DNA of 64,000 nt from assembly GCA_027340875.1 (NCBI GenBank), contig DAIENX010000007.1, positions 32,001 through 96,000 on the forward strand, read 5' to 3'. Position numbers and translations under genes: made by a program. Below are positions 1-41,535 of this stretch, in pieces. The stretch is from Elusimicrobiota bacterium (GTDB lineage Bacteria > Elusimicrobiota > Elusimicrobia > Elusimicrobiales > UBA9959). Position 1 is the stretch's first letter; each line of letters opens with the position of its first letter. A model generated the notes under the pieces. The model did not search any database. It was not told the DNA's origin and saw only the letters and a list, made by a program, of their open reading frames with translations.

Positions 1-1354
1 AGCAGCCGTCCAGGCAGGTGGAGCTGACCACCACCGGCACGCCGCTGGCCTTCTCGGCCTCGCCGGCCAGCTTCCGCACGTCCTCGCCCATAGCGTAAGG
101 TACGCAGCCGTTGGTCATGAAGATATAATCCGGCCTTCCTCCGGCCAGGTCCGCGGCGATATCCCTTATGCGGCCGCCGCTGCCGAGTATCACTTCCCCT
201 GTGCCCAGCGCGCTGGAGCTCCTGGTGGAGCCGGCTTCCGGGTGCAGCTCGCTGCCGGGCAGCAGGCTGGCGGGACCGCGCAGGAACGGGACCTTCTCGC
301 TCTCCTCCAGCCGCTCCTGGCTGTAGGCGCATTCCCTGTCCTCGTGGGCCAGGAAAGCCTGCCGCCCGGTGTAGCGTACCAGCCCGGTGCCGGAGAAGAC
401 GGCGTCCGAGAAGAAGCGGCGCCAGCCGTCGCCGGCGCCCGAGGGCGGCCTGGCGGGCGAGGAGATCTTGAAGGACGCCCCGCAGGCCTCCGGCGCGTGG
501 CAGGCAGCGGGCACGTCGGGCGGGGCGGCCGGAAGCACGCGCGGCTTCTTCCCGCGGCCGGAGAGCAGCGGCAGCAGTATCCTGCCGTCCACCGGCCGCG
601 GCAGGGAGCCGGCGGCATCGGAAGCGTCCAGGCCGGCCTTTATCCTCCTGACCGCCGCGGCGAAAGGCGAGCGCGGGGCCAGGCGCACCACCGCGGCCCC
701 GGCGGCTTCGGCCTCCCTGACCGCCGGGTCCAAAGGACAGCGGGCCAGTATGCCGGCCTTTATCAGCGCGGCGAACTTGTCCACGGCGCCGCCGCGGCCG
801 CCGTCCGCGCCGTTGGCCACCAGCCCCATCAGGCCGGCGCCGCTGCCGGCGTGCACGGTCATCGCGCGGGCTATGTTGTTGGCGGCGTAGAGTGACATCA
901 GGTCTTCCGAGACCACTATCAGCACCTTGCGCCCGAAGCCTTTTCTCAGCGGCACGGCGAAGCCGCCGCAGACTATGTCGCCCAGCACGTCGAAGATCAC
1001 CGCGTCGTAGTCGGCGGCCACCTTCTCGCGGGCGGATTCCAGCAGCTCGAAGGTCTTCAGCAGGCCCATGCCGGCGCAACCCTCTCCCGGAGCGGGGCCG
1101 CCGGCCTCCAGGCAGTCCACGCCCCTGCCTGTCCTGTAGATCAGCTTCTCCAGCGTCGGGCGGCCGCCGCGCAGCGCCTCCACCACGGTCGGGATGCCCT
1201 CGCCGCCTGTCAGCAGCAGCGCGGAATCGCTCTTCGGGTCGCAGCCCACGTGCAGGACCCGCTTGCCCTCCATGGCGTACAGCTCGCTGAGGTTGGCTGC
1301 TATGGTGGATTTGCCTATCCCGCCCTTGCCCAGGATGACGATGCGCTCAGACAT
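1..1354 (-). CDS. Nitrogenase Fe-protein (NifH/BchL/CfbC family) paralog fused to a nitrogenase component-1 (NifD/E/K-like) domain; 3' end outside the window
   Basis: Hand translation from ATG at 1354 gives MSERIVILGKGGIGKST, VGCDPKSDS, EAGGPAPGEGCAG, FDVLGDIVCGGFAVP and MSLYAANNI (Fe-protein motifs incl. both cluster Cys). The frame stays open through a Pro-rich linker into HEDREC...EVILGSGGRI...PDYIFMTNGCVPYAMGEDV...GVPVV. Not in the ORF track because there is no stop before position 1. Confidence 0.9.
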   Translation of the reverse strand, partial: MSERIVILGKGGIGKSTIAANLSELYAMEGKRVLHVGCDPKSDSALLLTGGEGIPTVVEALRGGRPTLEKLIYRTGRGVDCLEAGGPAPGEGCAGMGLLKTFELLESAREKVAADYDAVIFDVLGDIVCGGFAVPLRKGFGRKVLIVVSEDLMSLYAANNIARAMTVHAGSGAGLMGLVANGADGGRGGAVDKFAALIKAGILARCPLDPAVREAEAAGAAVVRLAPRSPFAAAVRRIKAGLDASDAAGSLPRPVDGRILLPLLSGRGKKPRVLPAAPPDVPAACHAPEACGASFKISSPARPPSGAGDGWRRFFSDAVFSGTGLVRYTGRQAFLAHEDRECAYSQERLEESEKVPFLRGPASLLPGSELHPEAGSTRSSSALGTGEVILGSGGRIRDIAADLAGGRPDYIFMTNGCVPYAMGEDVRKLAGEAEKASGVPVVVSSTCLDGC

Positions 1355-2366
1355 GTCCCACCGCCTCTCCCGCGGCCGGCCGGGCGCGCAGTATCCGGGC
1401 CGCGGCGGCCGCGGGGATGGGGCGCAGTTCGCCGTCGCCGAACCTGTCGAGGTAGGCCCCGAAGACCCCGGCGCAGCGGTCCGCCAGCGCGCAGCCCGAG
1501 CAGCGCTCCGTCCTCGTCCGCTTCAGCGGCGGGACCACGCTCTTCTTAACCGAGAGCACGTTCTCCTTCAGGTAGGAGCGCCCGCGCTCCAGCACGAGCC
1601 GCGGGGAGAAGAGCAGGTCGTTGGAGAAAGGGGCCAGCGGGCCCAGCGCGCAGAAAGGGGCCCCGGAGACGACCAGGCGGGCGCCGTTGGCGCGTATGGT
1701 CCCGGCGGCTGAACGCACGGCGCGCGCGAAGTCCGGCAGCCTCACGGTCAGGCTCCCGTAGGAGGAGCGCACGTTCCCCCACGGTATCAGCTGCGACATC
1801 ATGTAGACCCCCGGCCGGCCGCGGGAGAAGACGTACTTCGCTATGTCCGCCGTTCTCCCGGAGTTGAGGGAGCAGACCACGGTGTGGCACATGAACAGCT
1901 TGAGCTTCCCGAAGCGTTCCACGTTCGAAAAGACCTTTTCGACCGTGGAGAAGGCGGACGGCATCCGCGTGACGGCGCGCGCCAGTCCCTCTTCGTTCCA
2001 GTGCACAGAGAGGCAGAGTTCGTCGATGTCCGGCAGCAGCCGTGCCGCCGCCGCGGGGTCGGCCAGTCCCGTGCCGTCGGTGGTGACCTGCACCGAGTAG
2101 CCCAGCAGCTTGGCTATGCGCAGTATGCGCCCGAACTGCGGATGCACGGTGGGCTCCCCGCCCAGCAGCGTCAGGTGCCCGGCGCCGCCGCTCCGGAGCT
2201 TCTTCATTATCGAGCAGGCCTCCGCGAGCGGCATGAAGCCGCCGCCGGAGCGCAGGCTGCGCGCCTCGCAGCAGAAGACGCAGCGGCGGCGGCAGACCTT
2301 GGAGATCCGCAGCTCGGCCCGCTCCCCGGCGGCGCCGGGGGCGCTCAGTAGGTCCTCTCCGTGCAT
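1347..2366 (-). CDS. Radical SAM protein (HxsC-like) with C-terminal Cys cluster
   Basis: CRRRCVFC (CxxxCxxC), GGEPT, TTDG; C-terminal CSGCALADRCAG. Start is ATG 2366 or CTG 2348. Confidence 0.9.
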   Translation of the reverse strand: MHGEDLLSAPGAAGERAELRISKVCRRRCVFCCEARSLRSGGGFMPLAEACSIMKKLRSGGAGHLTLLGGEPTVHPQFGRILRIAKLLGYSVQVTTDGTGLADPAAAARLLPDIDELCLSVHWNEEGLARAVTRMPSAFSTVEKVFSNVERFGKLKLFMCHTVVCSLNSGRTADIAKYVFSRGRPGVYMMSQLIPWGNVRSSYGSLTVRLPDFARAVRSAAGTIRANGARLVVSGAPFCALGPLAPFSNDLLFSPRLVLERGRSYLKENVLSVKKSVVPPLKRTRTERCSGCALADRCAGVFGAYLDRFGDGELRPIPAAAAARILRARPAAGEAVGHV

Positions 2367-3076
2367 ATGTTGTACTTCACGTAATTGGGCGCGCGGTCCT
2401 CGCGCACCCGGCTGTCCACGGCCCGCTGCTTCCGCGGCCTGGCCCCGTCCGGCCTGAGCGCGGCGTAGTCCACGTGCGTGTCCGTCTCGTTCTCCTTGAG
2501 GTCCCAGACCGCGCATTTCAGCCCGAGCGCCATCATCCCGGAGACGGTCTCCTTTATCCTGCCCTGGTTGGCCTTCAGGCGCAGCGTGTGCATCTCTATC
2601 CTAGTGCCGGGAAAGGACTTTATGTTCTTTATGGCCTTCAGCAGGGCCGCGTAGCTGCCTTTCTTCCTGGTCACGGCGTCGTGCACGGCCGCGTCCGGCC
2701 CGTAGACCGGCAGCAGGAAGGCGTTGACCCCGGCCGCGACCAGCGCGGCCGTCAGCCGGCGGCTGCGCAGCTTGACGCCGTTCGACATCAGCTCTATATA
2801 GGCGAAGCCTTCCTTCACTCCCATCCTGACCACGGACTCCAGCAGCCACGCGGGGGCCATCGTGGGCTCGTCGCCGCCGAGGCAGAGCCGCCTGACTCCG
2901 CGCCGGCGGAGCACCCGCATCAGCGCGAGGAAGCGTATCAGCACCTCGCGCCACCGCTCCTCGGTGAAGGTGAAGGAGGTCTTGTGCGGGTGCCTGTTCC
3001 GCTGGCAGAAGACGCAGTCGATGTCGCAGCCGAACGGGAACGCCAGCAGCAGCTTGTCCTCCTTCCTGGCGTTCAT
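2345..3076 (-). CDS. Short radical SAM protein (243 aa) without a C-terminal auxiliary Cys motif
   Basis: CDIDCVFC, GDEPT, MSNG, HDAVT; GGAGG RBS and ATGA overlap with the upstream stop at 3073-3076. Confidence 0.9.
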   Translation of the reverse strand: MNARKEDKLLLAFPFGCDIDCVFCQRNRHPHKTSFTFTEERWREVLIRFLALMRVLRRRGVRRLCLGGDEPTMAPAWLLESVVRMGVKEGFAYIELMSNGVKLRSRRLTAALVAAGVNAFLLPVYGPDAAVHDAVTRKKGSYAALLKAIKNIKSFPGTRIEMHTLRLKANQGRIKETVSGMMALGLKCAVWDLKENETDTHVDYAALRPDGARPRKQRAVDSRVREDRAPNYVKYNICTERTY

Positions 3077-4059
3077 GCGGCCTTCACCTCCGTTATGGGA
3101 CGGAAGAAAGGGGCCTGCTCCGGGAAGGCCTCGAGATACTTCCGGAAGATGCCTCCGCAGGAGCGCCGCAGCGCGCAGCGGCCGCAGGACTTCAGATAGA
3201 CGCGCCGCCGCGTCGGGCGCAGCGAGACCGTCTCCTTCAGGCCGGCGCGCCCGCCGGGGAGCGCCGCCCTCTCCACGGTCAGCCGCGGCGAGTAGTAGAG
3301 GTCGTTGGAAAGGTCGTAATGACCGTTCAGCGAACAGGCCGGCGCGCCGAAGAAGCGCAGCGTCACGCCGAACAGCGCGGCCTGCTCCCGCAGGTCCCCT
3401 ATGCGCCGGCCTATGGCGGTGAGGTCCGGAGCCAGCGAGGCGTAGTCCTCGCAGGCGCCGCCCTCCGGGGCCGGGTTGGAGATCATGTAATGCCGGACGA
3501 ACCCAGAGCGGGAGACCAGGCGCAGGATGTCCGAGACCAGCTTGAAGTTCTTTTTGACGGCCACGGTGTTGACCATCAGGAACAGCCTGCCGCCGCCGGC
3601 CTTGCCCAGGTTGTCCAGCGCGGCCATGGCGTCGTCGAAGCTGCCCTTCCTGCCGGTCAGCGCGTCGTGTATCTTGGCCGTAGGTCCGTGGCAGGAGAGC
3701 ATGGCCTCGTCCAGCAGCGGCGCGGTACGGCGGACGAAAGCGGGATCGGCGAAGGCGAGGCCGTTGGTGGTGACGCTGGTCCTGAACCCAAGCGCCCTGG
3801 CCGCACCGAGGGCGGCCGGCAGCGCGGCGCACAACGACGGCTCTCCTCCGGTGAAAGTGACGTGGGAGAAGCCGGCCCTGCGTTTCTCGCGCAGGATGCC
3901 TGCTATCTCCGACCCCGTCAGGTCCAGCGAGCCGAACCGGCGCAGCCTGTTCCGCTCGCTGCAGAACAGACAGCTGTTCTCGCAGGTGTAGGAAACGTGT
4001 ATCTCCAGCCGCTCCACCGCGGCTTTCTTCGCTCCAGCGCCGTGTACCGTTCGGCTCAT
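3073..4059 (-). CDS. Radical SAM protein (HxsC-like) with C-terminal Cys cluster
   Basis: CENSCLFC, FTGGEPS, TTNG, HDALT; C-terminal CGRCALRRSCGG; ATGA overlap at 4056-4059. Confidence 0.92.
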   Translation of the reverse strand: MSRTVHGAGAKKAAVERLEIHVSYTCENSCLFCSERNRLRRFGSLDLTGSEIAGILREKRRAGFSHVTFTGGEPSLCAALPAALGAARALGFRTSVTTNGLAFADPAFVRRTAPLLDEAMLSCHGPTAKIHDALTGRKGSFDDAMAALDNLGKAGGGRLFLMVNTVAVKKNFKLVSDILRLVSRSGFVRHYMISNPAPEGGACEDYASLAPDLTAIGRRIGDLREQAALFGVTLRFFGAPACSLNGHYDLSNDLYYSPRLTVERAALPGGRAGLKETVSLRPTRRRVYLKSCGRCALRRSCGGIFRKYLEAFPEQAPFFRPITEVKAA

Positions 4060-5183
4060 GCGACGCACCTCCCGGAACGGACCGGCTTCAACGCCGAGAA
4101 ACCCCTGGCCATCACGGTCCATATCCTGGCTCCGCGGCAGGCCGGGCCCAGCCGGCAGCGTCGGCAGGCGGAACCCTTCACGGTCAGCCTCTCCGCTATG
4201 AAGAACTCGGCCACCTTCATCAGGCCGGCCCTTGGCGTTATCTTTTTCACGGCCCTCCGCTTCTCCGGCAGGCAGGCCGGCGCCGGGACCGTCTTAAGGG
4301 AACCTTCCGCCCGCAGCAGCTCGAGGTCCGAGCAGAACTGTGCCATCACGCAGGACGCGCACCGCGCCCCCTTGCAGTGCATCTCCTCTCCGGCGTACAG
4401 GAAGGCCTCCAGCGGCCGGCGCATCCCCCGCACCTCGTCCATCAGCTTGCCGGGGTGCTGTATATACCGCTCGTTGCCCTCCAGCACTGCGGCGGGGAAG
4501 CGGTTCGTCCAGACGTGGGCGTTGACGGATTCGGAGAAGCGGAACACCTTTTCCAGCACCTTCCTCTTGGAAGCCGGGTCATAGGAAAGTTTCTTCCAGT
4601 TCTCCCACGCCCTGCCGAAAGGTATCAGGTTCAGCAGGTCGTACTCGTCCACGCCGAGGCGGTGCAGCAGGCCGACTATCTCGCGGACGGAGTCGGCGTT
4701 AAGCCTGTTCACCACGATGTCGCTGCTGACTATCAGGCCCGGCACCTTCTTGGCGTTGGCGATGGCCAGCAGGGTCTGCGCGAAAGCGCCGGGGACCCCG
4801 ACCAGCGCGTCGTGCTGCCCGGAGGTGGCCCCGTGCACGGAGAACGTTATCTCGGTGAGCCCGGCGGCCACAGCGCGCTTCAGAAAGCCATCGTAGCAGA
4901 ACATCCGCCCGTTGCTGATGGCCTGCACGTGGGTATAGCCGAGCTTCCTCGCCTTCGCCACTATGGCCGTGAATTTGGGGTGTATCGTGGGCTCTCCGCC
5001 GCTCAGCACCACCCGGCGGCAGCCCTCCGCCCGGCCCCGCCTCAGGTCGGCCTCTATCTCTCCGAGCGGCAGATGTTCGCCGCAGATGGAGTCCGCGTCC
5101 AGACAGAAAAGGCAGCGGTTGTTGCAGGCCCTGGTCAGCCTGACCCATTTCCGCTTTTCCGGGGCGGCGGTTCTTTCCGTCAT
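4056..5183 (-). CDS. Radical SAM protein (HxsC-like) with two C-terminal Cys clusters
   Basis: WVRLTRACNNRCLFCLD, SGGEPT, ISNG; C-terminal CKGARCASCVMAQFC and CRRCRLGPACRG; ATG at 5183. Confidence 0.92.
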   Translation of the reverse strand: MTERTAAPEKRKWVRLTRACNNRCLFCLDADSICGEHLPLGEIEADLRRGRAEGCRRVVLSGGEPTIHPKFTAIVAKARKLGYTHVQAISNGRMFCYDGFLKRAVAAGLTEITFSVHGATSGQHDALVGVPGAFAQTLLAIANAKKVPGLIVSSDIVVNRLNADSVREIVGLLHRLGVDEYDLLNLIPFGRAWENWKKLSYDPASKRKVLEKVFRFSESVNAHVWTNRFPAAVLEGNERYIQHPGKLMDEVRGMRRPLEAFLYAGEEMHCKGARCASCVMAQFCSDLELLRAEGSLKTVPAPACLPEKRRAVKKITPRAGLMKVAEFFIAERLTVKGSACRRCRLGPACRGARIWTVMARGFSALKPVRSGRCVA

Positions 5184-5187
5184 AGTT

Positions 5188-6135
5188 CTATCCAAGAAGT
5201 ATCCTCTCTGCCAGCCTGTCCGCGGCCATCCCGCCGGCCACGGCCTTGGCCCCGAAAAGCTTCTTCGCCATGCCGGAGTAATCAGGACGGCGTCCGCTCC
5301 CGGCGCCCAGAGCCTCCAGCCCGCCGGCCAGCATCTGCGCGGCCTGGCCCGGGTCCCTCGCGGCAAGGACGAGGTTGGAGTGATAGCACCTGCCGTCAGT
5401 GTCCACCGTGGTCCCGGGATTGAAAAGCGGCACCGGGCCTTCGCGCGAGGCGTTCTCGATGACAACGGCCCCGGAATCGGCCAGTTCCCTGATATGCCTC
5501 AGCGCCCTGGCGAGCTTGGCGAGGGCGGCCGGCGTCCATTCCCGGTAATAGGCCGGCAGGACGTTGACCCTGGGCGGTCGTCCGCGCGAAGCGGCTATCA
5601 CGCGCTTCAGGACCCCGAGCGAAGAAAGCGGGTCGCGCTCGGGCAGCAGCAGGTTCCAGATCAGGTTGGGCAGGGCCGCGAACCTGCGGCTGACGCTCAC
5701 CGAGGAGTTAATGTTCACCTGCACCCACGGCCGGGCCGAGAAATACCGGAGCTTCGCCGCGTCCAGCAGCAGGCCGTTCGTGCCCACCTCCGCGCGGCCG
5801 CGGTAGCCGGCCGCCTCCAGCATGCCTATGCCAGTCCTCACCAGCCCGAAGCGCAGCAGCGGCTCCCCGCCGAAAAACTTGACCGCGCCGCCCCCCAGGG
5901 CGGCGGAACAATACTGCTTTATAGCGCTTTTCAGGACCGCCGCGGGCATGTCCGCCCGCCCGGTCGCGACGGGACATTCGGGGCACGCCGACTGGCAGCG
6001 CCGGGTGAGGATAAGGGTCAGCTGCGGGGCCGGCGCGCCCCCGCGGCAGGCCGGAAGGGCCGAGTTACTGGCCCTTCGCCGGTTCCTTTCCTTTGGTCTG
6101 CTTGCCCTGCGGCTGTACGCCCATCCTCTTGTCAT
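5188..6135 (-). CDS. Radical SAM protein, start codon uncertain
   Basis: LTRRCQSACPEC, FFGGEPLL, GTNGLLL; the ATG at 6135 lies inside the upstream gene, so the true start may be later. Confidence 0.8.
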   Translation of the reverse strand: MTRGWAYSRRASRPKERNRRRASNSALPACRGGAPAPQLTLILTRRCQSACPECPVATGRADMPAAVLKSAIKQYCSAALGGGAVKFFGGEPLLRFGLVRTGIGMLEAAGYRGRAEVGTNGLLLDAAKLRYFSARPWVQVNINSSVSVSRRFAALPNLIWNLLLPERDPLSSLGVLKRVIAASRGRPPRVNVLPAYYREWTPAALAKLARALRHIRELADSGAVVIENASREGPVPLFNPGTTVDTDGRCYHSNLVLAARDPGQAAQMLAGGLEALGAGSGRRPDYSGMAKKLFGAKAVAGGMAADRLAERILLG

Positions 6136-7114
6136 CTTCAGCCTTCTGCTTTACCATGTCGGCCATTATCTTGTGGCGGAACGAGCTCGTGCAGTAGCCG
6201 GTGGCGAGCTTCTTGGCCAAAGGTGCGCAAACCGACGGGTCCCTGGACTGCAGCACGTGGAGCAGCCATTTCTCGTCCGGGGTGGAATCCCCCCTCACCA
6301 GCGCGGCGCTGAGCTGGCATTCTTTCTTCCGCGGGCCGCTCAGTTTGCCGCAGGCCGCCCGCCCGTTGATGAACAGGAAGTTGGATTCGCAGTTGGGCGG
6401 CAGACCGAGCGAGCGGCACTCCGGGGTCCGCCTCTTCGCGATAGAGTCGGTAATGAACCGACAGAAGTCGGGGCTGGGACGCCCCCCCCTGAACGCGTTG
6501 TTAACGAACTTCTCGCATTTCCCGTCGTTCGTCTTCCTGTTCAGGGCCGAATACATGAAATCGTAGTAATCGGCGGCGAAACAGACCCTCTCCAGGTTCT
6601 GCTGGACGCAGTCGAGACGGCCACCGCTGATAAGCCGGCAGACGCCGTAGTCCAGGAAGAGATCGAGTATAGTCTCATCCTCGGGCATGTTGCTGTTGGT
6701 ATTGAAGAAGAACCGGAAGTTCTTGTCGAAATGCCTGACGATAGCGTCCGGGTTGTCCGAGAAGGCCTTTATACAGTCGCTGTCGGCCGCGTTCACCGGG
6801 ACGTCCTCTGGCTGGGAATAATACCCGCCGGAGGCGCTTTCGTACTGGCCGCTCTGGGGGATATTGCTCTGGGTATCGGTCGACGCCTGGCTGACCAGCG
6901 CGGCGGCGTCCGGAGGAAGCGCCTGGCCGACCTCCTGTTGCTGGGCCGCGGGGTAGGCCGGAGCCGCCGGCTGCTCGATGCCTATCTTCGCGGCGTTCCT
7001 GTCGGTGACCATCTTCAGGGCGAAAAGCACGCCCATCAGCGCCACCAGCAGGCCGATAAGCAGCTTCGGGGACATCGCCCCGGGTCTGTAGCCTTTCCTC
7101 ATCGCGCTCACCAT
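6065..7114 (-). CDS. Membrane-anchored, Cys-rich (12 Cys) hypothetical protein, probably extracytoplasmic
   Basis: N-terminal hydrophobic segment LLIGLLVALMGVLFAL, Q/P/A-rich linker, 12 spaced Cys and no CxxCH; start overlaps the precursor stop. Confidence 0.8.
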   Translation of the reverse strand: MVSAMRKGYRPGAMSPKLLIGLLVALMGVLFALKMVTDRNAAKIGIEQPAAPAYPAAQQQEVGQALPPDAAALVSQASTDTQSNIPQSGQYESASGGYYSQPEDVPVNAADSDCIKAFSDNPDAIVRHFDKNFRFFFNTNSNMPEDETILDLFLDYGVCRLISGGRLDCVQQNLERVCFAADYYDFMYSALNRKTNDGKCEKFVNNAFRGGRPSPDFCRFITDSIAKRRTPECRSLGLPPNCESNFLFINGRAACGKLSGPRKKECQLSAALVRGDSTPDEKWLLHVLQSRDPSVCAPLAKKLATGYCTSSFRHKIMADMVKQKAEDDKRMGVQPQGKQTKGKEPAKGQ

Positions 7115-7404
7115 TGCCCGTGGCTGCCGTGCGAACCGTGCGAACCGTGCGAGCCGTGGCTGCTGTGCGAACCGTGCGAACCGTGCGAGGCGTGACTCAC
7201 GTGGCCCGACGCGTTGCCGCTGCTGTGGAAGTAGTTTGCATGCGCTAGCGCGTCAGCGTGCTCTGTCACCACTCCGACGGCGGTGGCTACCAGTCCGAGG
7301 ACGACCGCGGCCTTGACCACGTCGCTCTTGACTATCTTGCCCTCCTCGCTCGAAAGGAAGCGGGAAAGGTCTACCGACAGTTTCTTTTTCTGTTTTCCGG
7401 CCAT
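7108..7404 (-). CDS. hxsA: His-Xaa-Ser repeat precursor peptide (HxsA-like), 98 aa
   Basis: C-terminus HVS-HAS-HGS-HGS-HSS-HGS-HGS-HGS-HGS-HGQW; basic plus hydrophobic leader; directly downstream of an HxsB-like radical SAM gene. Confidence 0.9.
   Translation of the reverse strand: MAGKQKKKLSVDLSRFLSSEEGKIVKSDVVKAAVVLGLVATAVGVVTEHADALAHANYFHSSGNASGHVSHASHGSHGSHSSHGSHGSHGSHGSHGQW
7123..7203 (-). repeat. Nine tandem 9-bp units encoding the His-Xaa-Ser array
   Basis: Degenerate cgaaccgtg units on the + strand. Confidence 0.9.
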
Positions 7405-7423
7405 ATTTCGCCCCGTTCTCGGT

Positions 7424-8893
7424 CTATACGTGTATCCCGGCCGCTCCGGCGCTGCTGCCGGCCCAGGATTCGAACAGCTTCCTAACCTTCGGCTCGCGCA
7501 GCCGCGCGAACAGGTAGTCCATCACTCCGGTGTAGATCTCGCACCGGAAGTTGGGATGATGCATGTACAGGTCGTTGTGCTCCGAATAGTTGAAGACCGG
7601 GCATACGCCGCAGTAGGGCTTGTAGACGCAGGAGGAGCAGAGCGTCTGTATGTCCGTGACCGACGCGGTGACCACGCATTTCACCACTGAGCTCGACGCC
7701 AGGTCCGCGTAGGTCTCCTTCTTCAGGTCGCCCATGCAGAACGAATCGGTCCCCTCCGCCGCCAGCATGCGCCCCTCGTCGCAGGTGAAGACGCGGCCGT
7801 CGTAGTCGTAGGCGATCTGGCCTATCCCCGCCCCGCAGGGGGACCGGAGGTCCATGAAGTTCGGGTCGGTGCCGGTCAGGATCTTCCTCAGGAATATCCT
7901 GGCCGTGTGCTCGACCAGGGAGGCCTTCTTCTTCAGGTTCAGCTCTATGATGTAGTCCAGCGCCTTCGTGTAGAACTCTATGTACTCCCGCGCCGTGTAG
8001 CCTATCCCAGGCCAGGCCTTCTTCGCCGCGCCGAACGGATTGAGGAAGCGCAGGAAGATGGAGCGGGCGCCGATGCGGACGTATTCGTCCACTATGTCCT
8101 TGTGGCGCCCCAGGGACTGCTGCGTCACCGTGAGCAGGGCGTCCGGCCCGTTCTTGGTCCTGGCCGTGCGCTTCTTGATGGTCTTCCACCACTTCACGAC
8201 CTGGGCGTGGCTGCTGCCGCCGGTGGCCACCCGGTTCTTGTCGTGCAGGTCGGCGGGACCGTCCAGCGAGGTGCAGATGGCGACGTTGTGCTTGAGCAGG
8301 AAGTTCAGCCTCTCTCCGGTCATGGCCGACAGGTTGGTGACCAGGCTCAGGCTCACCTTCTTATCGAAGGTCTTCGTGCGGGCGGCGGCCTCGTTGACCA
8401 CGAACTCCAGCACGGGCCAGTTGAGCAGCGGCTCCCCGCCCTGGAACTCTATGGTGATGTTGTCGGCCGGGGAAGCGAAGATGGCGTCCAGCACCCTGGA
8501 GGCCGTCTCCCTGTTCATGTCCAGGCCGCGGCCGCTCCTCTTGGACGAGGCGTGGCAATACACGCAGTCGTGGTTGCAGCGCCGCGTCAGCACGGCTATG
8601 TGCAGCGCCGGGCCGGAGAAGAGGAAATGGTTCTTCTCGAGCCACCTCTCGGCCAGGCCGGAAAAGTCCATGTAGTCGCGGACGAGGCCCTTGCGGGAGA
8701 GGTCCTTGTACTCAGCCGAGTCCTTGTCCAGCTTGCCGGCCGCCAGCCGCGAGAAGACATCGCCGGAGATGAAGGCGTGCTCGCCTATGTCGTTGGTGAC
8801 CAGGTATTCGTCGCCCCACTTCTTGTAGCGCAGAAAACCGGTCTTCTTCGGGTCGAAGTCAATTCTTTCTTTTTGCTTTTCTGGCCTTCGCAT
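7424..8893 (-). CDS. hxsB: His-Xaa-Ser system radical SAM/SPASM maturase HxsB
   Basis: CNHDCVYC, IEFQGGEPLLN, TSLDGP; SPASM-type DLRSPCGAG...TCDEGRM...CSSCVYKPYCGVCP...C; lies between the HxsD-like and HxsA-like genes. Confidence 0.9.
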   Translation of the reverse strand: MRRPEKQKERIDFDPKKTGFLRYKKWGDEYLVTNDIGEHAFISGDVFSRLAAGKLDKDSAEYKDLSRKGLVRDYMDFSGLAERWLEKNHFLFSGPALHIAVLTRRCNHDCVYCHASSKRSGRGLDMNRETASRVLDAIFASPADNITIEFQGGEPLLNWPVLEFVVNEAAARTKTFDKKVSLSLVTNLSAMTGERLNFLLKHNVAICTSLDGPADLHDKNRVATGGSSHAQVVKWWKTIKKRTARTKNGPDALLTVTQQSLGRHKDIVDEYVRIGARSIFLRFLNPFGAAKKAWPGIGYTAREYIEFYTKALDYIIELNLKKKASLVEHTARIFLRKILTGTDPNFMDLRSPCGAGIGQIAYDYDGRVFTCDEGRMLAAEGTDSFCMGDLKKETYADLASSSVVKCVVTASVTDIQTLCSSCVYKPYCGVCPVFNYSEHNDLYMHHPNFRCEIYTGVMDYLFARLREPKVRKLFESWAGSSAGAAGIHV

Positions 8894-9320
8894 TTTTGTT
8901 TTCTTCCCACGGTATGGCTATTCCCAGAGCATCGGTCTTGTAGTCGCCGCTCTCCGCCTCTTTCAGCAGCTTCTCGATCTCCTTCTCCAGCTCCGCGTCC
9001 AGCACCGGGGCGGCGGCCGCCGGTTCCGCGGGTCTGGGCTGCGCGGAAAGAAGGGCCCTGACCACTATCCTCTCGCGCAGGGCCTGGTTCACGGCCGAGA
9101 CCTTGAGGCGGAAAGCGTGGTGCAGCAGTTCGTTGCGGAACTCGCCCTCCAGGTCGCGGCCCGCCGGGAACTTGCCGTTCTTGGACTCCAGCACGGCCGA
9201 GAGAGCGCCGCCCTTGTCCTTGCCCAGCTTCACGTACGCGGCCTTGGAGAACGTGTATGCCGCGGCATAGACGCACTCGATAGGGTAAACGGAAAGATCT
9301 ATCTTCACCTGTATTTTCAT
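8859..9320 (-). CDS. hxsD: His-Xaa-Ser system protein HxsD
   Basis: YPIECVYAAAYTF...GEFRNELLHHAFR...NQALRERIV pattern and position directly upstream of hxsB. Confidence 0.8.
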   Translation of the reverse strand: MKIQVKIDLSVYPIECVYAAAYTFSKAAYVKLGKDKGGALSAVLESKNGKFPAGRDLEGEFRNELLHHAFRLKVSAVNQALRERIVVRALLSAQPRPAEPAAAAPVLDAELEKEIEKLLKEAESGDYKTDALGIAIPWEENKNAKARKAKRKN

Positions 9321-9339
9321 GCTGATCCTCTAACGCAGT

Positions 9340-9903
9340 TTATCTCAACCTGCAGCAAAGCATTTCGCCAGTAGCCTGTATACCGCCGGGAGGGCCCATC
9401 TGGTACATCTGGTTGCCGACGCGGGCGGCCACTACGGCGGTCTTGGCGCCGAGACACATCGTGACGACGCCGTAAGAATAGCTCTGCCAGGAACAGTCCA
9501 GCGGGACCGTCGGGTCGGACCAGCGGGCCAGGCCGTTGCCGTCCGAGGTAAGCAGCCGGCCGTTGGCCTGCGTGCCGTCCTGCAGCTCGAAGCTGCCGAC
9601 CACGTGGAGTTTTGCGGCCGGGGAAGGGGTGCCTATTCCAACATTGCCGCCGTCCCTGGCCAGCAGGGTCTGGCTGGTGGTAAGTATGCTGACGTAGCCG
9701 CCGTAGGGGGCAGGGTAATAAGTGGTCAGCGTAAGCGTCTCGGAGCCGATGAAGCCCGGATGCCAGCAGATGAACATGAGGGCCATCAGCGCCACCACCG
9801 TCTTCCGGTGCGTCCTGCCGAGCCTGTCCAGCCAGGCAGGCAGGCCGGGCTGGTGAAGCCAGTCCAGCGAGAACCTTATAACGATATCGCGGTTATTTTT
9901 CAT
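9340..9903 (-). CDS. Membrane-anchored hypothetical protein with TLTTYYPAPYG and GNVGIGT motifs (fibre/adhesin-like)
   Basis: Hydrophobic segment VVALMALMFICW, ETLTLTTYYPAPYGGY, GNVGIGTPSPAAKLHV, C-terminal Cys residues; 19 bp upstream of hxsD. Confidence 0.7.
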   Translation of the reverse strand: MKNNRDIVIRFSLDWLHQPGLPAWLDRLGRTHRKTVVALMALMFICWHPGFIGSETLTLTTYYPAPYGGYVSILTTSQTLLARDGGNVGIGTPSPAAKLHVVGSFELQDGTQANGRLLTSDGNGLARWSDPTVPLDCSWQSYSYGVVTMCLGAKTAVVAARVGNQMYQMGPPGGIQATGEMLCCRLR

Positions 9904-10088
9904 AGTCGCCGCCCCCGATAAGCGCGAAAAGCACATCCTTGCGCAACGGCCCCTACGGTCGGGACGCGTTGCATATCACACGGACCGCCACGGGCTTGCT
10001 CCCATGGCACTCACCGATCCGGATTTCGTTCGCGCGCCTACGCGCATGCTAGCCATCCGCCGGCTTACGCCGGCGATACTTCGACTAT
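9902..10088 (-). ncRNA. Candidate structured 5' leader RNA of the hxs operon
   Basis: Nested inverted repeats 9902-9908/10082-10088 and 9922-9928/10029-10035; hairpins 9943-9972, 9987-10008 and 10058-10075; lies between promoter and first ATG. Confidence 0.5.
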
Positions 10089-10095
10089 ATTATTA

Positions 10096-10124
10096 ATTAT
10101 AGCAGAAATCTTTCCGATTTTCAA
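10096..10124 (-). promoter_or_regulatory. Sigma70-type promoter of the hxs/radical SAM operon
   Basis: Minus strand reads TTGAAA-N17-TATAAT with an extended -10 (TGcTATAAT). Confidence 0.8.
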
Positions 10125-10254
10125 TGGGAGCCGCCTTCAGCCGCGGCCGCTGGAGGGACCGCCCGTCCCGGACAGGCTCCAGGGCAGAAAAGCCCGGCAG
10201 GCCCATGTGCAGGAGGTCCCGGCATTACCGGGGGCCAGCGATCAGGCAGACCCC

Positions 10255-11733
10255 TCAGCTGCCGGCCTTTATCCCTCTCGACCTGACGAACTTGTCGAGG
10301 TCGAACTTCTCGAAGGGCTGGTAATTCTTCTGCCGCCAGGGCTTGTTGGTGATGAAGCTCCAGCCCATCTTGATGAACATGTTGAGGTAGGTCCTATGGA
10401 GCGGCTTCTTCGAGAAGAAATAGTTCCCGAGGAACTTCCTGTTCACGATAAGTGCCTTCCCGATCCATTTTTTATAGTACTTGTCGGCCTCCCCGACCGA
10501 CATATCCGCGGTCCTGGTTATCGCGTTGAGCCAGTTGAACTGCGAGAAATCCGTCACCTCTATCGCGCCCATCTTCTTGCATTCGTCGTAATAGGGGGTG
10601 CCCGGCAGCGGCGTGGTGAAATCCGGGCCCACGATGTCGCAGTTCTCGATCAGGAAGTCGAGGGTATTGTGCAGGTCCTCCTTGGTATCCCACGGACTGC
10701 CCCACATCAGCATTCCCATGATTATGAAATTGTGCTTCTGGGCTATCTTTATGGCCTTGTTTATCACCTCGAGGGTCTGCGGCTTCTGCAGCCTTTGCAG
10801 TTCGCTGGGCTTCGAGGTCTCTATCCCCAGCATGATCTGATACACGCCTATCTCGTTGAGGTCCTTCATCAGGCTCTCGTTCCTGATCACGTTGAAGCAG
10901 GTCGTCTGTATCCACATCAGGACGCCCAGCTTCCTGGCCCGCATGAGCTTTATGAACTCCCGGGTGCGGTCCTGGTCGTGGAGGAAGTCGTTGTCCCCGA
11001 CGTAGAAGACCTTTTTGCCGTATTTCTTGCTCAGCAGCTCGAGCACGTCCACCATGTACTTCGCCCCGTGCCCGCGCCAGGAATGCTGCCAGTGTATGGC
11101 CTCGCTGCAGAACCTGCAGTGCCCCACGCAGCCCCTCGCGAAATTCACGGTGAAGCCGACCTTGCCGCCGAACGGGGCCAGGCCGTACCTCTCCATCGGG
11201 AACAGGTCGAAGGCGGGCATCGGGAGCTCGTCCAGGTCCTTTATCATCGGCCGAGGGGCGTTCTTTACGGCCTCTCCGTCCTTGAGCCAGGCCAGGCCTT
11301 TTATCCCCGAAAGGTCTCTCTCCTTCTTCTCCACGGCCCGGAGCAGCTCCATCAGCGTGACCTCTCCCTCGCCCGTGACGATGTAATCGAACAGCCCGCT
11401 TTCAAGGGCGTCCTTCCACATGTAGGAGCCCATATAGCCGCCGGTCACTATCTTGGCGCCGGGCAGCACCTTTCTCGCTATCTTCGCGGCGTTCACCGTA
11501 TCCTGCCAGAAAGCCGTTACCGACCCGGTTATGGCCACGACGTCCGGCCGCTCATTATCGAGCGTCTCCGCCGTTCTGTCCCATGGCTTATCGGGCGCGA
11601 CGGCGGCGTCGAAGACCTTCGTTTCGAACTCTTTCCTGGCTACCGCGGCGAGGTATATGAGCGACGGCGAGGCCGTCACGCCCCTGAAAAATTCCCAGTA
11701 TTGGTGGAGCGGTTCAAGAAAAAGGACTTTCAT
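10255..11733 (-). CDS. Cobalamin-binding radical SAM protein (class B methyltransferase/BchE-like architecture)
   Basis: N-terminal B12-binding-like domain (LIYLAA...PDVVAIT...VTGG...DYIVTGEGE), then ARGCVGHCRFC, GIET, TPLPGT. Confidence 0.9.
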   Translation of the reverse strand: MKVLFLEPLHQYWEFFRGVTASPSLIYLAAVARKEFETKVFDAAVAPDKPWDRTAETLDNERPDVVAITGSVTAFWQDTVNAAKIARKVLPGAKIVTGGYMGSYMWKDALESGLFDYIVTGEGEVTLMELLRAVEKKERDLSGIKGLAWLKDGEAVKNAPRPMIKDLDELPMPAFDLFPMERYGLAPFGGKVGFTVNFARGCVGHCRFCSEAIHWQHSWRGHGAKYMVDVLELLSKKYGKKVFYVGDNDFLHDQDRTREFIKLMRARKLGVLMWIQTTCFNVIRNESLMKDLNEIGVYQIMLGIETSKPSELQRLQKPQTLEVINKAIKIAQKHNFIIMGMLMWGSPWDTKEDLHNTLDFLIENCDIVGPDFTTPLPGTPYYDECKKMGAIEVTDFSQFNWLNAITRTADMSVGEADKYYKKWIGKALIVNRKFLGNYFFSKKPLHRTYLNMFIKMGWSFITNKPWRQKNYQPFEKFDLDKFVRSRGIKAGS

Positions 11734-11925: not shown

Positions 11926-11954
11926 TTGACAGCCGCCGGGTTTCGTCTTATAAT
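11926..11954 (+). promoter_or_regulatory. Perfect-consensus sigma70 promoter
   Basis: TTGACA (11926-11931), 17-nt spacer, TATAAT (11949-11954). Confidence 0.9.
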
Positions 11955-11981
11955 CGGATTATACGGGTGACAGGAGGAAAG

Positions 11982-12092
11982 ATGCCTGCGATCGCTAAAT
12001 CTCCGGTAAAACCGGCTAAAAAACTGAACAAAACGCTGAAAGCGGACAAGAAACTGTCGCGGTACTGCCGTTCCGGCAGGGTTCTCTGGTAA
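11982..12092 (+). CDS. 36-aa putative RiPP precursor MPAIAKSPVKPAKKLNKTLKADKKLSRYCRSGRVLW
   Basis: AGGAGG at 11972-11977, ATG 11982, TAA 12090-12092; sits between the consensus promoter and a SPASM radical SAM gene; too short for the ORF track. Confidence 0.8.
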   Translation: MPAIAKSPVKPAKKLNKTLKADKKLSRYCRSGRVLW

Positions 12093-12168: not shown

Positions 12169-13656
12169 ATGGCACAAAAACCGGCATTCCTCTTCGAGAA
12201 ACTCGGGCGCCGCATCGGCGTCTCTACCGGCACCGGCGATTTCTACGAGCTGTCCCCTGCCGTCTACAAGGCCCTTAAGAAGTGGAATAGCGCGATCGAA
12301 GAAAAGGGCGGAAAACTCTCGACCGCGGCGGCGGAAAAGCTGGCCCGCGGCTTTTCGGTCCCGGCGGAGATCTCCGCTCTGTTCCCGCTGCGCGCCGCCA
12401 GGTCCGGGCCTCCCGACATCCGCGCCCGCCTGACCGACCTGACGCTGAACATAACCTCCGACTGCAACCTGCGCTGCGTCTACTGCTGGAACGATACCGG
12501 GAAATATTCGAACGGTTCGTTCAAGAAGGCGAAGAGCGCCCGTCCGGAAGCCGCGGCCTGCCCTCCCCCGATGTCCGTGGAAACGGCCTGCCGGGCCGTG
12601 GACCTGCTGGTCAAGATGAGCCGCGGGGAAAAACAGCTGGTCGTGGATTTTTACGGCGGGGAGCCTCTTAAGAACCTGCCCACGCTCCTGGGCGCGGTCG
12701 CCTACTGCAAGGCCCTGGGAAAGAAAACGAACATCCGGTTCCATTTCCTGCTGGCCACCAACGGGACCCTGCTGACCCCGGCGCTGGCCGAGAAGCTGCT
12801 GGGACTGGGGGTACAGATAGCGGTAAGCGTGGACGGCCCCAGGAAGCTGCACGACCGGAACAGGCCCTTTCACGACGGGAAAGGCAGCTTCGCCGCGATA
12901 GCGCGAAACCTGCGGAACATGCGTCCGGAGACGAGACGCAGGCTGGTCGGGAGGACGACCGTCACCCCTTACTACACGGACATGGTCGCGCTTTACCGCA
13001 ACCTAAAGGACCTGGGGTTCGAGCGCGTGGAGATCTTCGAGAGCGAGGACGCGTGCCACAAGATAACCCCGGGGAGGGAAGCCGTTTTCTTCCACAAGGA
13101 AAAGGACTTCCGCAGGATCCTCGGGGAGTACGATCTGCTGGCCGGGAAATATTCGGACGAGGCCGTAAAGGGCGTCCTGGATTACGGAAAGACCTTCTTC
13201 AACAGGTTCTTCAAGCTGATGCAGAGGCTTTATTACAACCAGCAGGTCACCGGCGGGTGCCCGGCGGCCCAGGGCCAGATAGCGGTGTCGTCCGACGGCG
13301 AGATCTTCCCCTGCACCTCGTTCATAGGGATAAAGGCCTTCTCCCTCGGGAACGTGCACTCCGGGCTGGACCGCAAAAAACATCTCTCGCTGCTGCGGAA
13401 AACCGCCGGAAGGTTCAGGAGGTGCGCCGGCTGCGAGATCTTCAGCGTCTGCGGGACCACCGGGTCCTGCCTGAACATCAACCATTATTTCAACGGGGAC
13501 GTATCCAGGCCTCATGCCAGGAGTTGCAGGCTGTTCACGGAAAAGATAAAGCTGGCCATGGCCGTGCTCGCCGACCTTTCGGAAAGGATGCCGGACAGGC
13601 TGGAGGCTCTTTTCGGCCACGATCCCGTAGGACGTAGAGGGAACGAACTCTATTGA
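12169..13656 (+). CDS. Radical SAM/SPASM peptide maturase with N-terminal RRE-like extension
   Basis: CNLRCVYC, DFYGGEPL, TNGTLL, SVDGP..HD..R; SPASM-type GCPAA...DGEIFPC...CAGCEIFSVCGTTGSC...C; about 85 aa precede the core. Confidence 0.9.
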   Translation: MAQKPAFLFEKLGRRIGVSTGTGDFYELSPAVYKALKKWNSAIEEKGGKLSTAAAEKLARGFSVPAEISALFPLRAARSGPPDIRARLTDLTLNITSDCNLRCVYCWNDTGKYSNGSFKKAKSARPEAAACPPPMSVETACRAVDLLVKMSRGEKQLVVDFYGGEPLKNLPTLLGAVAYCKALGKKTNIRFHFLLATNGTLLTPALAEKLLGLGVQIAVSVDGPRKLHDRNRPFHDGKGSFAAIARNLRNMRPETRRRLVGRTTVTPYYTDMVALYRNLKDLGFERVEIFESEDACHKITPGREAVFFHKEKDFRRILGEYDLLAGKYSDEAVKGVLDYGKTFFNRFFKLMQRLYYNQQVTGGCPAAQGQIAVSSDGEIFPCTSFIGIKAFSLGNVHSGLDRKKHLSLLRKTAGRFRRCAGCEIFSVCGTTGSCLNINHYFNGDVSRPHARSCRLFTEKIKLAMAVLADLSERMPDRLEALFGHDPVGRRGNELY

Positions 13657-30683: not shown

Positions 30684-32446
<1,763 letters not shown>

Positions 32447-40925: not shown

Positions 40926-41535
40926 CTTCCAGCTCCTCCCAGCCCGTCAACATGGCCTTCAGGTTGGACGTCACGGTGCTGCCGGTGGTCATAAGGTAAA
41001 GGTGCCCGATCAGGAACGCCGCCAGCGCGAAGGCGCAGGCCGTATGCACCAGCGCTACGGGGCCCAGGGAGCCGGCCGACAGGAAGCCCGGCAGGCCGCC
41101 GCCCTGGTAGCGGTAGAACATGTACAGCAGGCCGGACAGCAGCGTGGCCGGCAGCAGGAAGACCTTCAGGCCGAAGTAGGCCAGCTTCTGCAGCGGGTTC
41201 AGCTTGGAATGCGCGGTCTTCTTGGTAGGGTGCGGCGCGTTCCGGAAGATACCGAACACGTAGTACTCCAGCTGCGCCGAGATGTTCTTCGTGGTCGGCA
41301 CGTACTGTTTCCATTCGCCCGTGGTGAAATGCCAGAAGATAGCGAAGGCTATCAGCACCATCAGCAGCCAGGTGGCGTCGTTGTGGTAGCGGACGGCGTC
41401 CCTGAAGCCGAGGAAGGAATAGGCGCCGTGTATCTCGAACCCGGTGAAGCCGAGGAAGATGATCAGCACGGCCTGCGTCCAGTGCCAGAACCGCTCGAAG
41501 CCGGTGTAGATCCTCACTTTCTTATGCGTCTTCAT
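40915..41535 (-). CDS. Cytochrome b membrane anchor (hydrogenase/thiosulfate reductase type)
   Basis: ERFWHWTQA, NPLQKLAY, four TM His, H.Y..TTG, AMLTGWE. Confidence 0.9.
   Translation of the reverse strand: MKTHKKVRIYTGFERFWHWTQAVLIIFLGFTGFEIHGAYSFLGFRDAVRYHNDATWLLMVLIAFAIFWHFTTGEWKQYVPTTKNISAQLEYYVFGIFRNAPHPTKKTAHSKLNPLQKLAYFGLKVFLLPATLLSGLLYMFYRYQGGGLPGFLSAGSLGPVALVHTACAFALAAFLIGHLYLMTTGSTVTSNLKAMLTGWEELEDEE

Follow-up and report, generated by a model that had tools for sequence, protein, structure and literature searches.

The 64,000-nucleotide stretch analysed here (the window: positions 32,001 to 96,000 of contig DAIENX010000007.1, from an Elusimicrobiota bacterium) begins within one long co-directional operon that joins a His-Xaa-Ser (Hxs) peptide-maturation cassette to a nitrogenase-like (NFL) reductase and a set of genes for radical S-adenosylmethionine (SAM) enzymes. 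Gene content, gene order, coupling, family assignments and the recurrence of the neighbourhood are directly observed. The combination of an Hxs cassette with a Group VI reductase is not in print, as judged by literature searches that joined their terms: no paper was found joining His-Xaa-Ser with nitrogenase, nor one joining nitrogenase-like, ribosomally synthesized and post-translationally modified peptide (RiPP), radical SAM and precursor peptide. We put somewhat below even the odds that the operon is one functional unit in which the reductase's substrate is the HxS peptide after radical-SAM modification, or a product derived from that peptide. For Group VI-type enzymes, the substrate may be a peptide and not a tetrapyrrole.

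Both halves of the operon have published relatives. Group VI nitrogenase paralogues were described in groundwater Elusimicrobia with up to 13 radical-SAM neighbours, and also in Gracilibacteria and Myxococcales, and were predicted to reduce tetrapyrroles (Meheust et al. 2020, 10.1101/765248). A first-pass annotation of the window had cited this paper for its radical-SAM suites and its tetrapyrrole hypothesis, and the accessible text bears out both points. The word 'peptide' does not occur in that accessible main text. A 2026 Chem Rev review treats Group VI as uncharacterised and links it to tetrapyrroles, and its accessible text contains no occurrence of His-Xaa-Ser, Hxs, RiPP, 'fused' or 'fusion protein' (PMC13474568). 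The annotation's remark that Hxs systems lack a characterised product is outdated. Canonical HxsD-B-C-A is an antiphage system that blocks phage DNA entry, and part of its product is defined: HxsB and HxsC mature a periplasmic HxsA, adding 8 Da on SHRSS of the last repeat, while HxsC binds HxsD (Li et al. 2026, PMC13128918). The accessible portion of that paper places 99.7% of HXS systems in Pseudomonadota.

The source genome comprises 2.8 Mb in 112 contigs, with completeness estimated at 92%. An additional 18 kb ahead of the window start was fetched (L003), and families were assigned by Pfam and NCBIfam profile scans in which bit scores were compared with curated cut-offs. The gene run occupies the minus strand from position 9936 to the window edge and continues ~13.9 kb past the window start, with ~24 genes in total (Table 1). 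From 9936 downwards, successive genes are separated by 19, −35, 19, −7, −71, 4, −4, −4, −22 and −8 bp. Beyond the window start, also on the minus strand, the NflH-NflD fusion gene (NflHD) is followed by a 429-aa NifK/BchN-like protein (NflK; Oxidored_nitro 141.2 bits), three HxsC-like radical-SAM genes and a 403-aa seven-helix membrane protein (L003:11935-13143). Next come four radical-SAM genes, of which one contains an additional, degenerate domain and another is of the SPASM type and resembles PapB and HxsB; they are followed by a 309-aa protein of no assigned family and one further HxsC-like radical-SAM gene. The last gene of the operon encodes a 468-aa secreted HEAT-repeat protein with a Cys-rich C-terminus (L003:4122-5528, minus strand). 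An open reading frame (ORF) at L003:2558-4096 (minus strand) was dropped as probably spurious, having an odd composition, no family and a 499-aa ORF on the opposite strand.

Fourteen of the operon's genes are radical-SAM genes, namely HxsB and 13 extra ones, and a B12-binding radical-SAM gene upstream is the fifteenth. The latter is separated from the operon's first gene by 318 bp holding a promoter-like site and probably forms a separate transcription unit. Gene order is unchanged in the operon's two closest relatives, L004 and L005, whose NflD proteins are 82% and 62% identical to the one described here. Terminator-like sites are not enriched inside the operon (10, versus a mean of 8.9 in shuffled sequence). 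The genome holds a single HxsB over the cut-off and a single nitrogenase-like system, and both are in this operon.

Much of this layout had been anticipated. The first-pass annotation described a tightly packed operon with Hxs genes, an (HxS)9 precursor, a Cys-rich protein, five radical-SAM genes and a NifH-like fusion, and profile and regular-expression searches recover all of these on the minus strand. Chance can be excluded: HxsB and HxsA4 exceed their cut-offs, the precursor is 95% identical in L004, and a reversed HxS pattern occurs in none of 36 related genomes. The extent of the operon had been underestimated, however. The annotation started the run with hxsD, using a start at 9903, whereas a 198-aa membrane protein (9340-9936) precedes hxsD. 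The co-directional run from 9903 stands, but it does not end at the window edge, and the five extra radical-SAM genes counted within the window grow to 13 in the complete operon.

The Hxs cassette is defined by an HxsB maturase and an HxsA4-type precursor, each above its NCBIfam cut-off. The HxsD-like protein falls just short against TIGR03976 (48.2 bits, cut-off 50), with E = 1.1e-12 and 87 of 90 model positions aligned. The precursor begins with a Lys-rich N-terminus, followed by the motif FLSSEEGKI, a hydrophobic helix, nine consecutive HxS units (by regular-expression count) and a C-terminal GQW; 13 of its 98 residues are His. This design is common to Elusimicrobia and Myxococcota, where a Lys-rich start, FL(S/T/N)SEEGK(I/M), a hydrophobic helix and a linker lead into the HxS array. 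The arrays range from 7 to 31 units, the leader motif is conserved, and the C-terminal ends are aromatic or Cys (GQW, GSW, GSY or RGGWC). Across all fetched loci, the leader motif is restricted to ORFs with an HxS array. The precursor resembles that of a RiPP-like maturation cluster in adjoining its maturases and in combining a conserved leader with a variable array.

Each of the five window radical-SAM genes that follow the precursor encodes one CxxxCxxC motif. HxsC4 or HxsC is the best NCBIfam match of four of these five, always far below the cut-offs, and of 10 of the 13 extra radical-SAM genes in the operon. No operon gene reaches the HxsC (TIGR03977) cut-off of 267.9, the best scores being 89.1 in the window and 106.3 in the operon (L003:10985-11947). 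Likewise, none reaches the HxsC4 (NF038332) cut-off of 500, with 126 bits as the best score. The divergent 315-aa radical-SAM gene (5188-6135) is conserved in L004 and L005.

Two further proteins accompany the precursor. Homologues of the 198-aa protein, conserved in several genera, precede HxsD in L004, L005, G086, G220, G114 and G313, and homologues of the Cys-rich 349-aa protein occupy the same position in L004 and L005. ESM Atlas searches with both proteins gave no score above 0.86 and structural TM scores of at most 0.42, and no family is named for either. The 198-aa protein bears a weak structural resemblance, under the bar (TM 0.35-0.42), to phage-tail-like trimerisation and C1q-like proteins, in an Atlas record that starts at residue 12. 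The Cys-rich protein is presumably located outside the cytoplasm. By eye, its sequence (6065-7114) is similar to the Cys-rich C-terminal part of the HEAT protein, and the patterns around YGVC and CAPL occur in both. Each of the two proteins may thus carry one of a pair of exported Cys domains that are paralogous.

The reductase half of the operon centres on a 738-aa fusion in one open frame, with matches to Fer4_NifH (221.8 bits) and Oxidored_nitro (54.6 bits). Read by eye, the NflH part has the Walker A sequence GKGGIGKS as well as the two Cys contexts of the cluster (CAGMG and VCGGF). The NifH, BchL, BchX and CfbC models all score below cut-off for NflH (CfbC 222 of 402, NifH 213 of 394). 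The best solved relative of NflH is 9fmg_D (193 bits), and the solved relatives of NflD and NflK in the Protein Data Bank (PDB) are remote, at E 1e-5 to 1e-6. In family alignments, Cys residues C43, C118 and C427 of NflD and C42 of NflK are invariant. Neither NifB nor any other nitrogenase gene is present in the source genome. Judged by sequence, the reductase fits the published Group VI NFL systems, an assignment that uses family scores, motifs and relatives in groundwater-series genomes. These relatives include the named groundwater-series Elusimicrobia genomes GWA2_56_46 (L005) and GWA2_66_18 (L028). A complex prediction of NflD, NflK and HxsA4, run without controls, scored 0.00; it gives no verdict and is counted neither way.

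Relatives of the NflD part were collected in several ways. A word-indexed homologue search returned 4 proteins, and a full HMMER search returned 551 representatives at E<=1e-3. A 10-sequence NflD alignment was then run against 185,579 species genomes, with at most 10 kb of DNA taken on each side of a match. This search returned 55 NflD loci from Elusimicrobia, Myxococcota, 'Deltaproteobacteria' and one Desulfobacter, of which 21 were fetched at full length. Among these 55 comparison loci, 17 have the NflH-NflD fusion, and both phyla are represented. NflD homologues are often 590-630 aa long, with an N-terminal extension of 150-250 residues of no assigned nature, and one Myxococcales ORF reaches 1618 aa (L042:6551-11407). 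Two Myxococcota-type loci (L024 and L032) carry three Oxidored_nitro paralogues in a row with apparently no NifH gene adjoining, flanked by an S26 signal peptidase, FeoB and, in L032 only, a U32 peptidase.

Radical-SAM genes are frequent around NflD. At least one is present in 42 of the 55 loci, and three or more are present in 23. Relatives of two of the window's radical-SAM genes recur there at 200 bits or more: those of the 4056-5183 gene in 16 of the 55 loci (mostly at 320-358 bits) and those of the 3073-4059 gene in 10. A homologue of the seven-helix gene is found in 15 of the 55. The operon copy of this membrane protein has seven predicted helices, and D25, N33 and W-P-A-G-D103-x-K are invariant in 21 homologues. 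The Peptidase_A24 profile (PF01478) is matched by 12 of the 21 family members at E<=1 (best 2.9e-6), and not by the operon's own copy. A Foldseek search of the PDB with an AlphaFold2 model (mean pLDDT 73.9) returned no match at E<=1e-3. These sequence features suggest that the A24-like protein could be a leader peptidase acting on the membrane-anchored HxS precursor.

Linkage between reductase and Hxs genes was also assessed at the level of whole genomes. In a sample of 401 genomes of the phylum, HxsB was called at E<=1e-40 and NflK at E<=1e-8, the NflK search scoring at most four candidates per genome. HxsB is present in 90 of the 401 (89 over the cut-off; the one that falls short is probably the HxsB of G178, at E 1.9e-85). 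Many of these genomes carry 2-3 copies, and the gene is concentrated in three families (43/47 genomes in f1, 34/47 in f8 and 8/10 in f6). NflK occurs in 37 genomes, all in these same families, and 36 of the 37 also carry HxsB, the exception being G152. A DNA pattern of five HxS repeats is found in 35 of the 36 relatives, with 0/36 for the reversed-pattern control. Within the three families, NFL is present in 36/86 HxsB-positive versus 1/19 HxsB-negative genomes (Fisher p=0.0026, for genomes that are kin and not independent). Outside the phylum, all five NflD-bearing genomes have exactly one HxsB over the cut-off.

Physical proximity is common as well. In 17 of the 36 relatives, NflK and HxsB share a contig at a distance of 2-19 kb, where random placement would be expected to bring the two within 20 kb in roughly 15% (our own estimate, for ~12 gene pairs in 3 Mb); contig breaks can only lower the observed count. 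Fourteen regions chosen for having NflK and HxsB on one contig describe architecture, not frequency. In G267, HxsD-B-A is followed directly by NflH-D-K, and in G086 and G220, NFL is immediately upstream of the 198-aa-protein homologue and HxsD-B-A. Co-directional arrays of 14-17 kb are seen in G190 and G072, and a convergent orientation in G296. A Desulfobacter genome extends the association to a second phylum: HxsA-HxsD-HxsB-HxsC heads a same-strand array of ~49 kb and ~30 ORFs, in which the cassette gives way first to eight consecutive proteins that match no Pfam family, one of them of 2869 aa (L059-L060, G401:C1 ~2545800-2566500), and then to radical-SAM genes, NflH-D-K and further radical-SAM genes. 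The reductase therefore recurs near Hxs genes in several arrangements, and the linkage is real but not universal.

How might the two halves work together? In the mechanism that we favour, the 98-aa precursor would supply the FLSSEEGKI leader, the hydrophobic helix and the (HxS)9 tail. In the cytoplasm, its His/Ser repeats would be cross-linked or oxidised by HxsB, HxsD and a dozen HxsC-like paralogues. NflK and the NflH-NflD fusion, with its ATP-dependent NflH module, would then reduce an unsaturated intermediate at low potential, either on the peptide itself or in the form of a heterocycle derived from it. The A24-like membrane peptidase would remove the leader, and the product would reach the envelope, where the operon's Cys-rich exported proteins might handle it. 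A bolder reading, to which we give a probability of about 35%, is that Group VI reductases are peptide-tailoring enzymes: they would use ATP-driven low-potential electrons to reduce heterocycles built by radical-SAM enzymes from the HxS repeats of a membrane-anchored precursor. The product would in that case be either a polymer displayed on the envelope or a cofactor, redox-active or metal-binding, that derives from the peptide. We infer every chemical step, the peptide as reductase substrate, the cleavage and the localisation. The overlap or near-abutment of start and stop codons across the Hxs/NFL junction speaks for the favoured mechanism.

Several observations weigh against peptide tailoring. 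An HxS-array ORF and a true HxsB accompany only 5 of the 55 NflD loci (L004, L005, L010, L013 and L031), and an HxS array is present in 4 of the 21 full-length loci. The 16 non-Elusimicrobia NflD loci contain no Hxs genes and no A24-like gene; five have any radical-SAM gene and one has three or more. Myxococcota-type genomes have a simple HxsD-B-A-C cassette and the NFL genes on different contigs, and next to the NFL genes lie those for a signal peptidase, FeoB and a U32 peptidase as well as sugar genes. The separate contigs and the few loci with a precursor count against an obligate physical link. The first-pass annotation had named frequent occurrence of the reductase clade without an HxS precursor as a refuting outcome, and the answer is divided: 50 of the 55 loci lack a precursor within 10 kb, whereas HxS arrays are found genome-wide in nearly all of the 36 relatives. 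One genome, G152, carries NFL without HxsB or an HxS array. This miss may be a contig break, because its NFL contig measures only 23.4 kb and the Hxs genes of its sister G190 lie 17 kb from NflK. Moreover, HxsB is near-universal in clades that carry NFL (f1 43/47, f8 34/47, the class of G402 90/107), so genome-level co-occurrence has little power; as that last class is the class of three of the genomes outside the phylum, the 5/5 co-occurrence there carries little weight. Finally, characterised NFL relatives act on tetrapyrroles, N2 or small sulfur compounds, and not on peptides, in the accessible text of the review (PMC13474568). At the scale of 10 kb, the peptide link is contradicted by most NflD loci, and it has yet to be proven.

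Other explanations have to be weighed. The published proposal, made by Meheust et al. (10.1101/765248) and repeated in the review (PMC13474568), is that of a tetrapyrrole: here NflHDK and the radical-SAM enzymes would tailor a free tetrapyrrole-like molecule, or serve another small-molecule cofactor pathway, and the Hxs cassette would be separate and merely adjoining. We consider this unlikely for the present operon. It has precedent in DPOR, COR and CfbCD, the NFL enzymes of chlorophyll and F430 synthesis (PMC13474568), and it agrees with the scarcity of HxS precursors around NflD. The best match of the B12 radical-SAM gene is BchE, though at under half of the cut-off, and ~17 kb past the window start there is a HemN/HemZ-like gene (L003:3-1121). 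The operon's HEAT protein has weak CpcE/CpcF/NblB-like matches, and the genome makes tetrapyrroles, with HemB and HemC on a contig other than the operon's. However, no tetrapyrrole biosynthesis gene is present in the operon or in the five Myxococcota-type loci examined. Against a chance neighbour stand the codon overlaps where the Hxs and NFL genes meet and the retention of gene order in L004 and L005; the flanking radical-SAM genes match HxsC or HxsC4 best and not tetrapyrrole enzymes, and an A24-like peptidase sits in the NFL core neighbourhood.

An enlarged HXS-type antiphage or envelope system, in which the modified HxS peptide is the effector and the reductase is only an ATP-driven electron source for radical-SAM clusters or for cluster assembly, appears improbable. 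It would extend the precedent of canonical HxsABCD, whose periplasmic HxsA, matured by radical-SAM enzymes, blocks phage DNA entry (PMC13128918). HxsA4 has a membrane helix, exported Cys-rich proteins are encoded in the operon, and fourteen radical-SAM enzymes would presumably need a low-potential reductant. Nevertheless, a mere electron donor needs no catalytic-type NflD and NflK subunits, which are conserved here with invariant Cys, and family scans of the window proteins found no defence or mobile-element genes. Defence systems are usually patchy in distribution, and HxsB, often in 2-3 copies, is near-universal in the whole families counted above, which is unlike a defence system. Least probable is a peptide-derived metal chelator or metallocofactor scaffold, an idea raised in the first-pass annotation, in which the His array binds metal and NflDK acts like NifEN in assembling a cluster delivered to or built on the peptide: the 13 His residues of the precursor, arrays of up to 31 repeats in relatives and FeoB beside the NFL genes of two Myxococcota-type loci fit it, but family scans found no metal transporter or chaperone in the operon, and according to the accessible text of the review, a NifB homologue is absent from genomes whose only NFL is of Group VI, and the FeMo-co ligands are missing from NflD/K (PMC13474568).

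The operon combines two known kinds of system. With Group VI NFL it has in common the phylum, a NifH-like protein that retains Walker A and the two cluster Cys, strongly divergent NifD/K partners, the lack of NifB and other nitrogenase genes, and many radical-SAM neighbours, some with B12 domains. It differs in that NflH and NflD form one polypeptide, a fusion unmentioned in the accessible text of PMC13474568. It differs further in the HxS precursor, HxsB, HxsD and A24-like peptidase in the operon, which go unmentioned in the accessible texts of 10.1101/765248 and PMC13474568, although the supplementary gene maps of the former may show them unlabelled. With the canonical HXS system, as described in the accessible text of PMC13128918, it shares an HxsB over the cut-off, an HxsD-like protein, a tandem His-Xaa-Ser precursor and HxsC-like radical-SAM enzymes. 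Unlike that system, it has no HxsC equivalog (106.3 versus 267.9) and twelve HxsC-like paralogues instead, and its order is D-B-A, not D-B-C-A, the gene after HxsB being the precursor. This precursor, of 98 aa with a membrane helix and nine repeats, has no Pfam peptidoglycan-binding-domain match. The 13 extra radical-SAM genes, NFL reductase and peptidase are further differences, and the host belongs to the Elusimicrobiota, whereas canonical systems are almost confined to Pseudomonadota.

A further comparison is with the NCBIfam HxsA4 and HxsC4 models. The precursor passes HxsA4, and nine radical-SAM genes of the operon score highest with HxsC4, none of them reaching its cut-off; the model names shown make no link to a nitrogenase-like protein. 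Myxococcota-type cassettes (L085 and L086) have the same precursor design, with the leader FL(S/N)SEEGKI, a hydrophobic segment, (HxS)15-17 and a C-terminal GSW. They differ in consisting of four genes, HxsD-HxsB-HxsA-HxsC, with NFL on other contigs. A small precursor peptide beside a SPASM radical-SAM maturase and a peptidase is also typical of the PQQ and mycofactocin pathways. PqqE and mycofactocin maturase models weakly match several operon genes, and we know of no pathway of this type with a nitrogenase-like reductase or a repeat-array precursor.

Table 1. Features of the operon and its upstream region within the window.
Feature	Position	Strand	Evidence and remarks
B12-binding radical SAM, 492 aa	10255..11733	-	Pfam B12-binding + Radical_SAM; best NCBIfam BchE 213.8 bits, cut-off 481
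Promoter-like site TTGAAA-17-TATAAT, TG extension	10096..10124	-	Consensus scan only, 11/12 matches; upstream of operon's first gene
198-aa protein, one membrane helix	9340..9936 (alternative start 9903)	-	No Pfam/NCBIfam family; first gene of cassette
HxsD-like, 153 aa	8859..9320	-	TIGR03976 48.2 bits, cut-off 50
HxsB radical SAM/SPASM maturase, 489 aa, CNHDCVYC	7424..8893	-	TIGR03978 489.4 bits, cut-off 370
HxsA4-type precursor, 98 aa	7108..7404	-	NF038313 64.4 bits, cut-off 55; nine HxS repeats
Cys-rich protein, 349 aa, N-terminal membrane helix, 12 Cys	6065..7114	-	No Pfam/NCBIfam family match
Divergent radical SAM, 315 aa, CQSACPEC	5188..6135	-	Pfam Radical_SAM 21.6 bits, cut-off 29.5; weak NCBIfam matches
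HxsC-like radical SAM, 375 aa, CNNRCLFC	4056..5183	-	HxsC4 94.8, HxsC 89.1 bits, both below cut-offs
HxsC-like radical SAM, 328 aa, CENSCLFC	3073..4059	-	HxsC4 83.8, HxsC 77.5 bits
HxsC-like radical SAM, 243 aa, CDIDCVFC	2345..3076	-	HxsC4 58.6, HxsC 50.6 bits
HxsC-like radical SAM, 339 aa, CRRRCVFC	1347..2366	-	HxsC4 63, HxsC 40.9 bits; 8-nt overlap with NflHD start
NflH-NflD fusion, 5' part (residues 1-451 of 738)	1..1354	-	Gene ends 862 nt beyond window start

Outside the operon, a gene pair on the plus strand may form a second, separate peptide-maturation system, divergent from the B12 gene. A perfect sigma-70-like site (TTGACA-17-TATAAT, 11926-11954) stands ahead of a 41-aa Lys-rich ORF with a Cys- and Trp-containing tail (11967-12092). 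This ORF precedes a PapB-like radical SAM/SPASM maturase gene (12169-13656; NF047865 215 bits, cut-off 340). The rest of the window is housekeeping in character and includes BamA, Lpx genes, MsbA, RelA/SpoT, RlmN, an octaheme cytochrome and ClpB. The octaheme c-type cytochrome (41532-43109, minus strand) is of the tetrathionate-reductase family (TIGR04315, 563.7 bits), with a cytochrome b subunit and two ArsR/BigR-like regulators nearby. G+C content across the window ranges from 56 to 71%. The stretch is present in 4 DNA sequencing runs of one study, and no RNA run is listed among its holders.

The operon and its relatives give Group VI reductases a concrete candidate substrate, a co-expressible peptide of 98 aa, together with a defined minimal gene set. 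With both in hand, an open question on Group VI becomes experimentally testable. Beyond the Pseudomonadota, in which they have been characterised, Hxs-type systems occur almost universally in some lineages of Elusimicrobia and Myxococcota, and in those lineages they combine a different precursor design with up to fourteen radical-SAM enzymes. If peptide tailoring holds true, the reductase would be the first member of the nitrogenase family to act on a ribosomal peptide.

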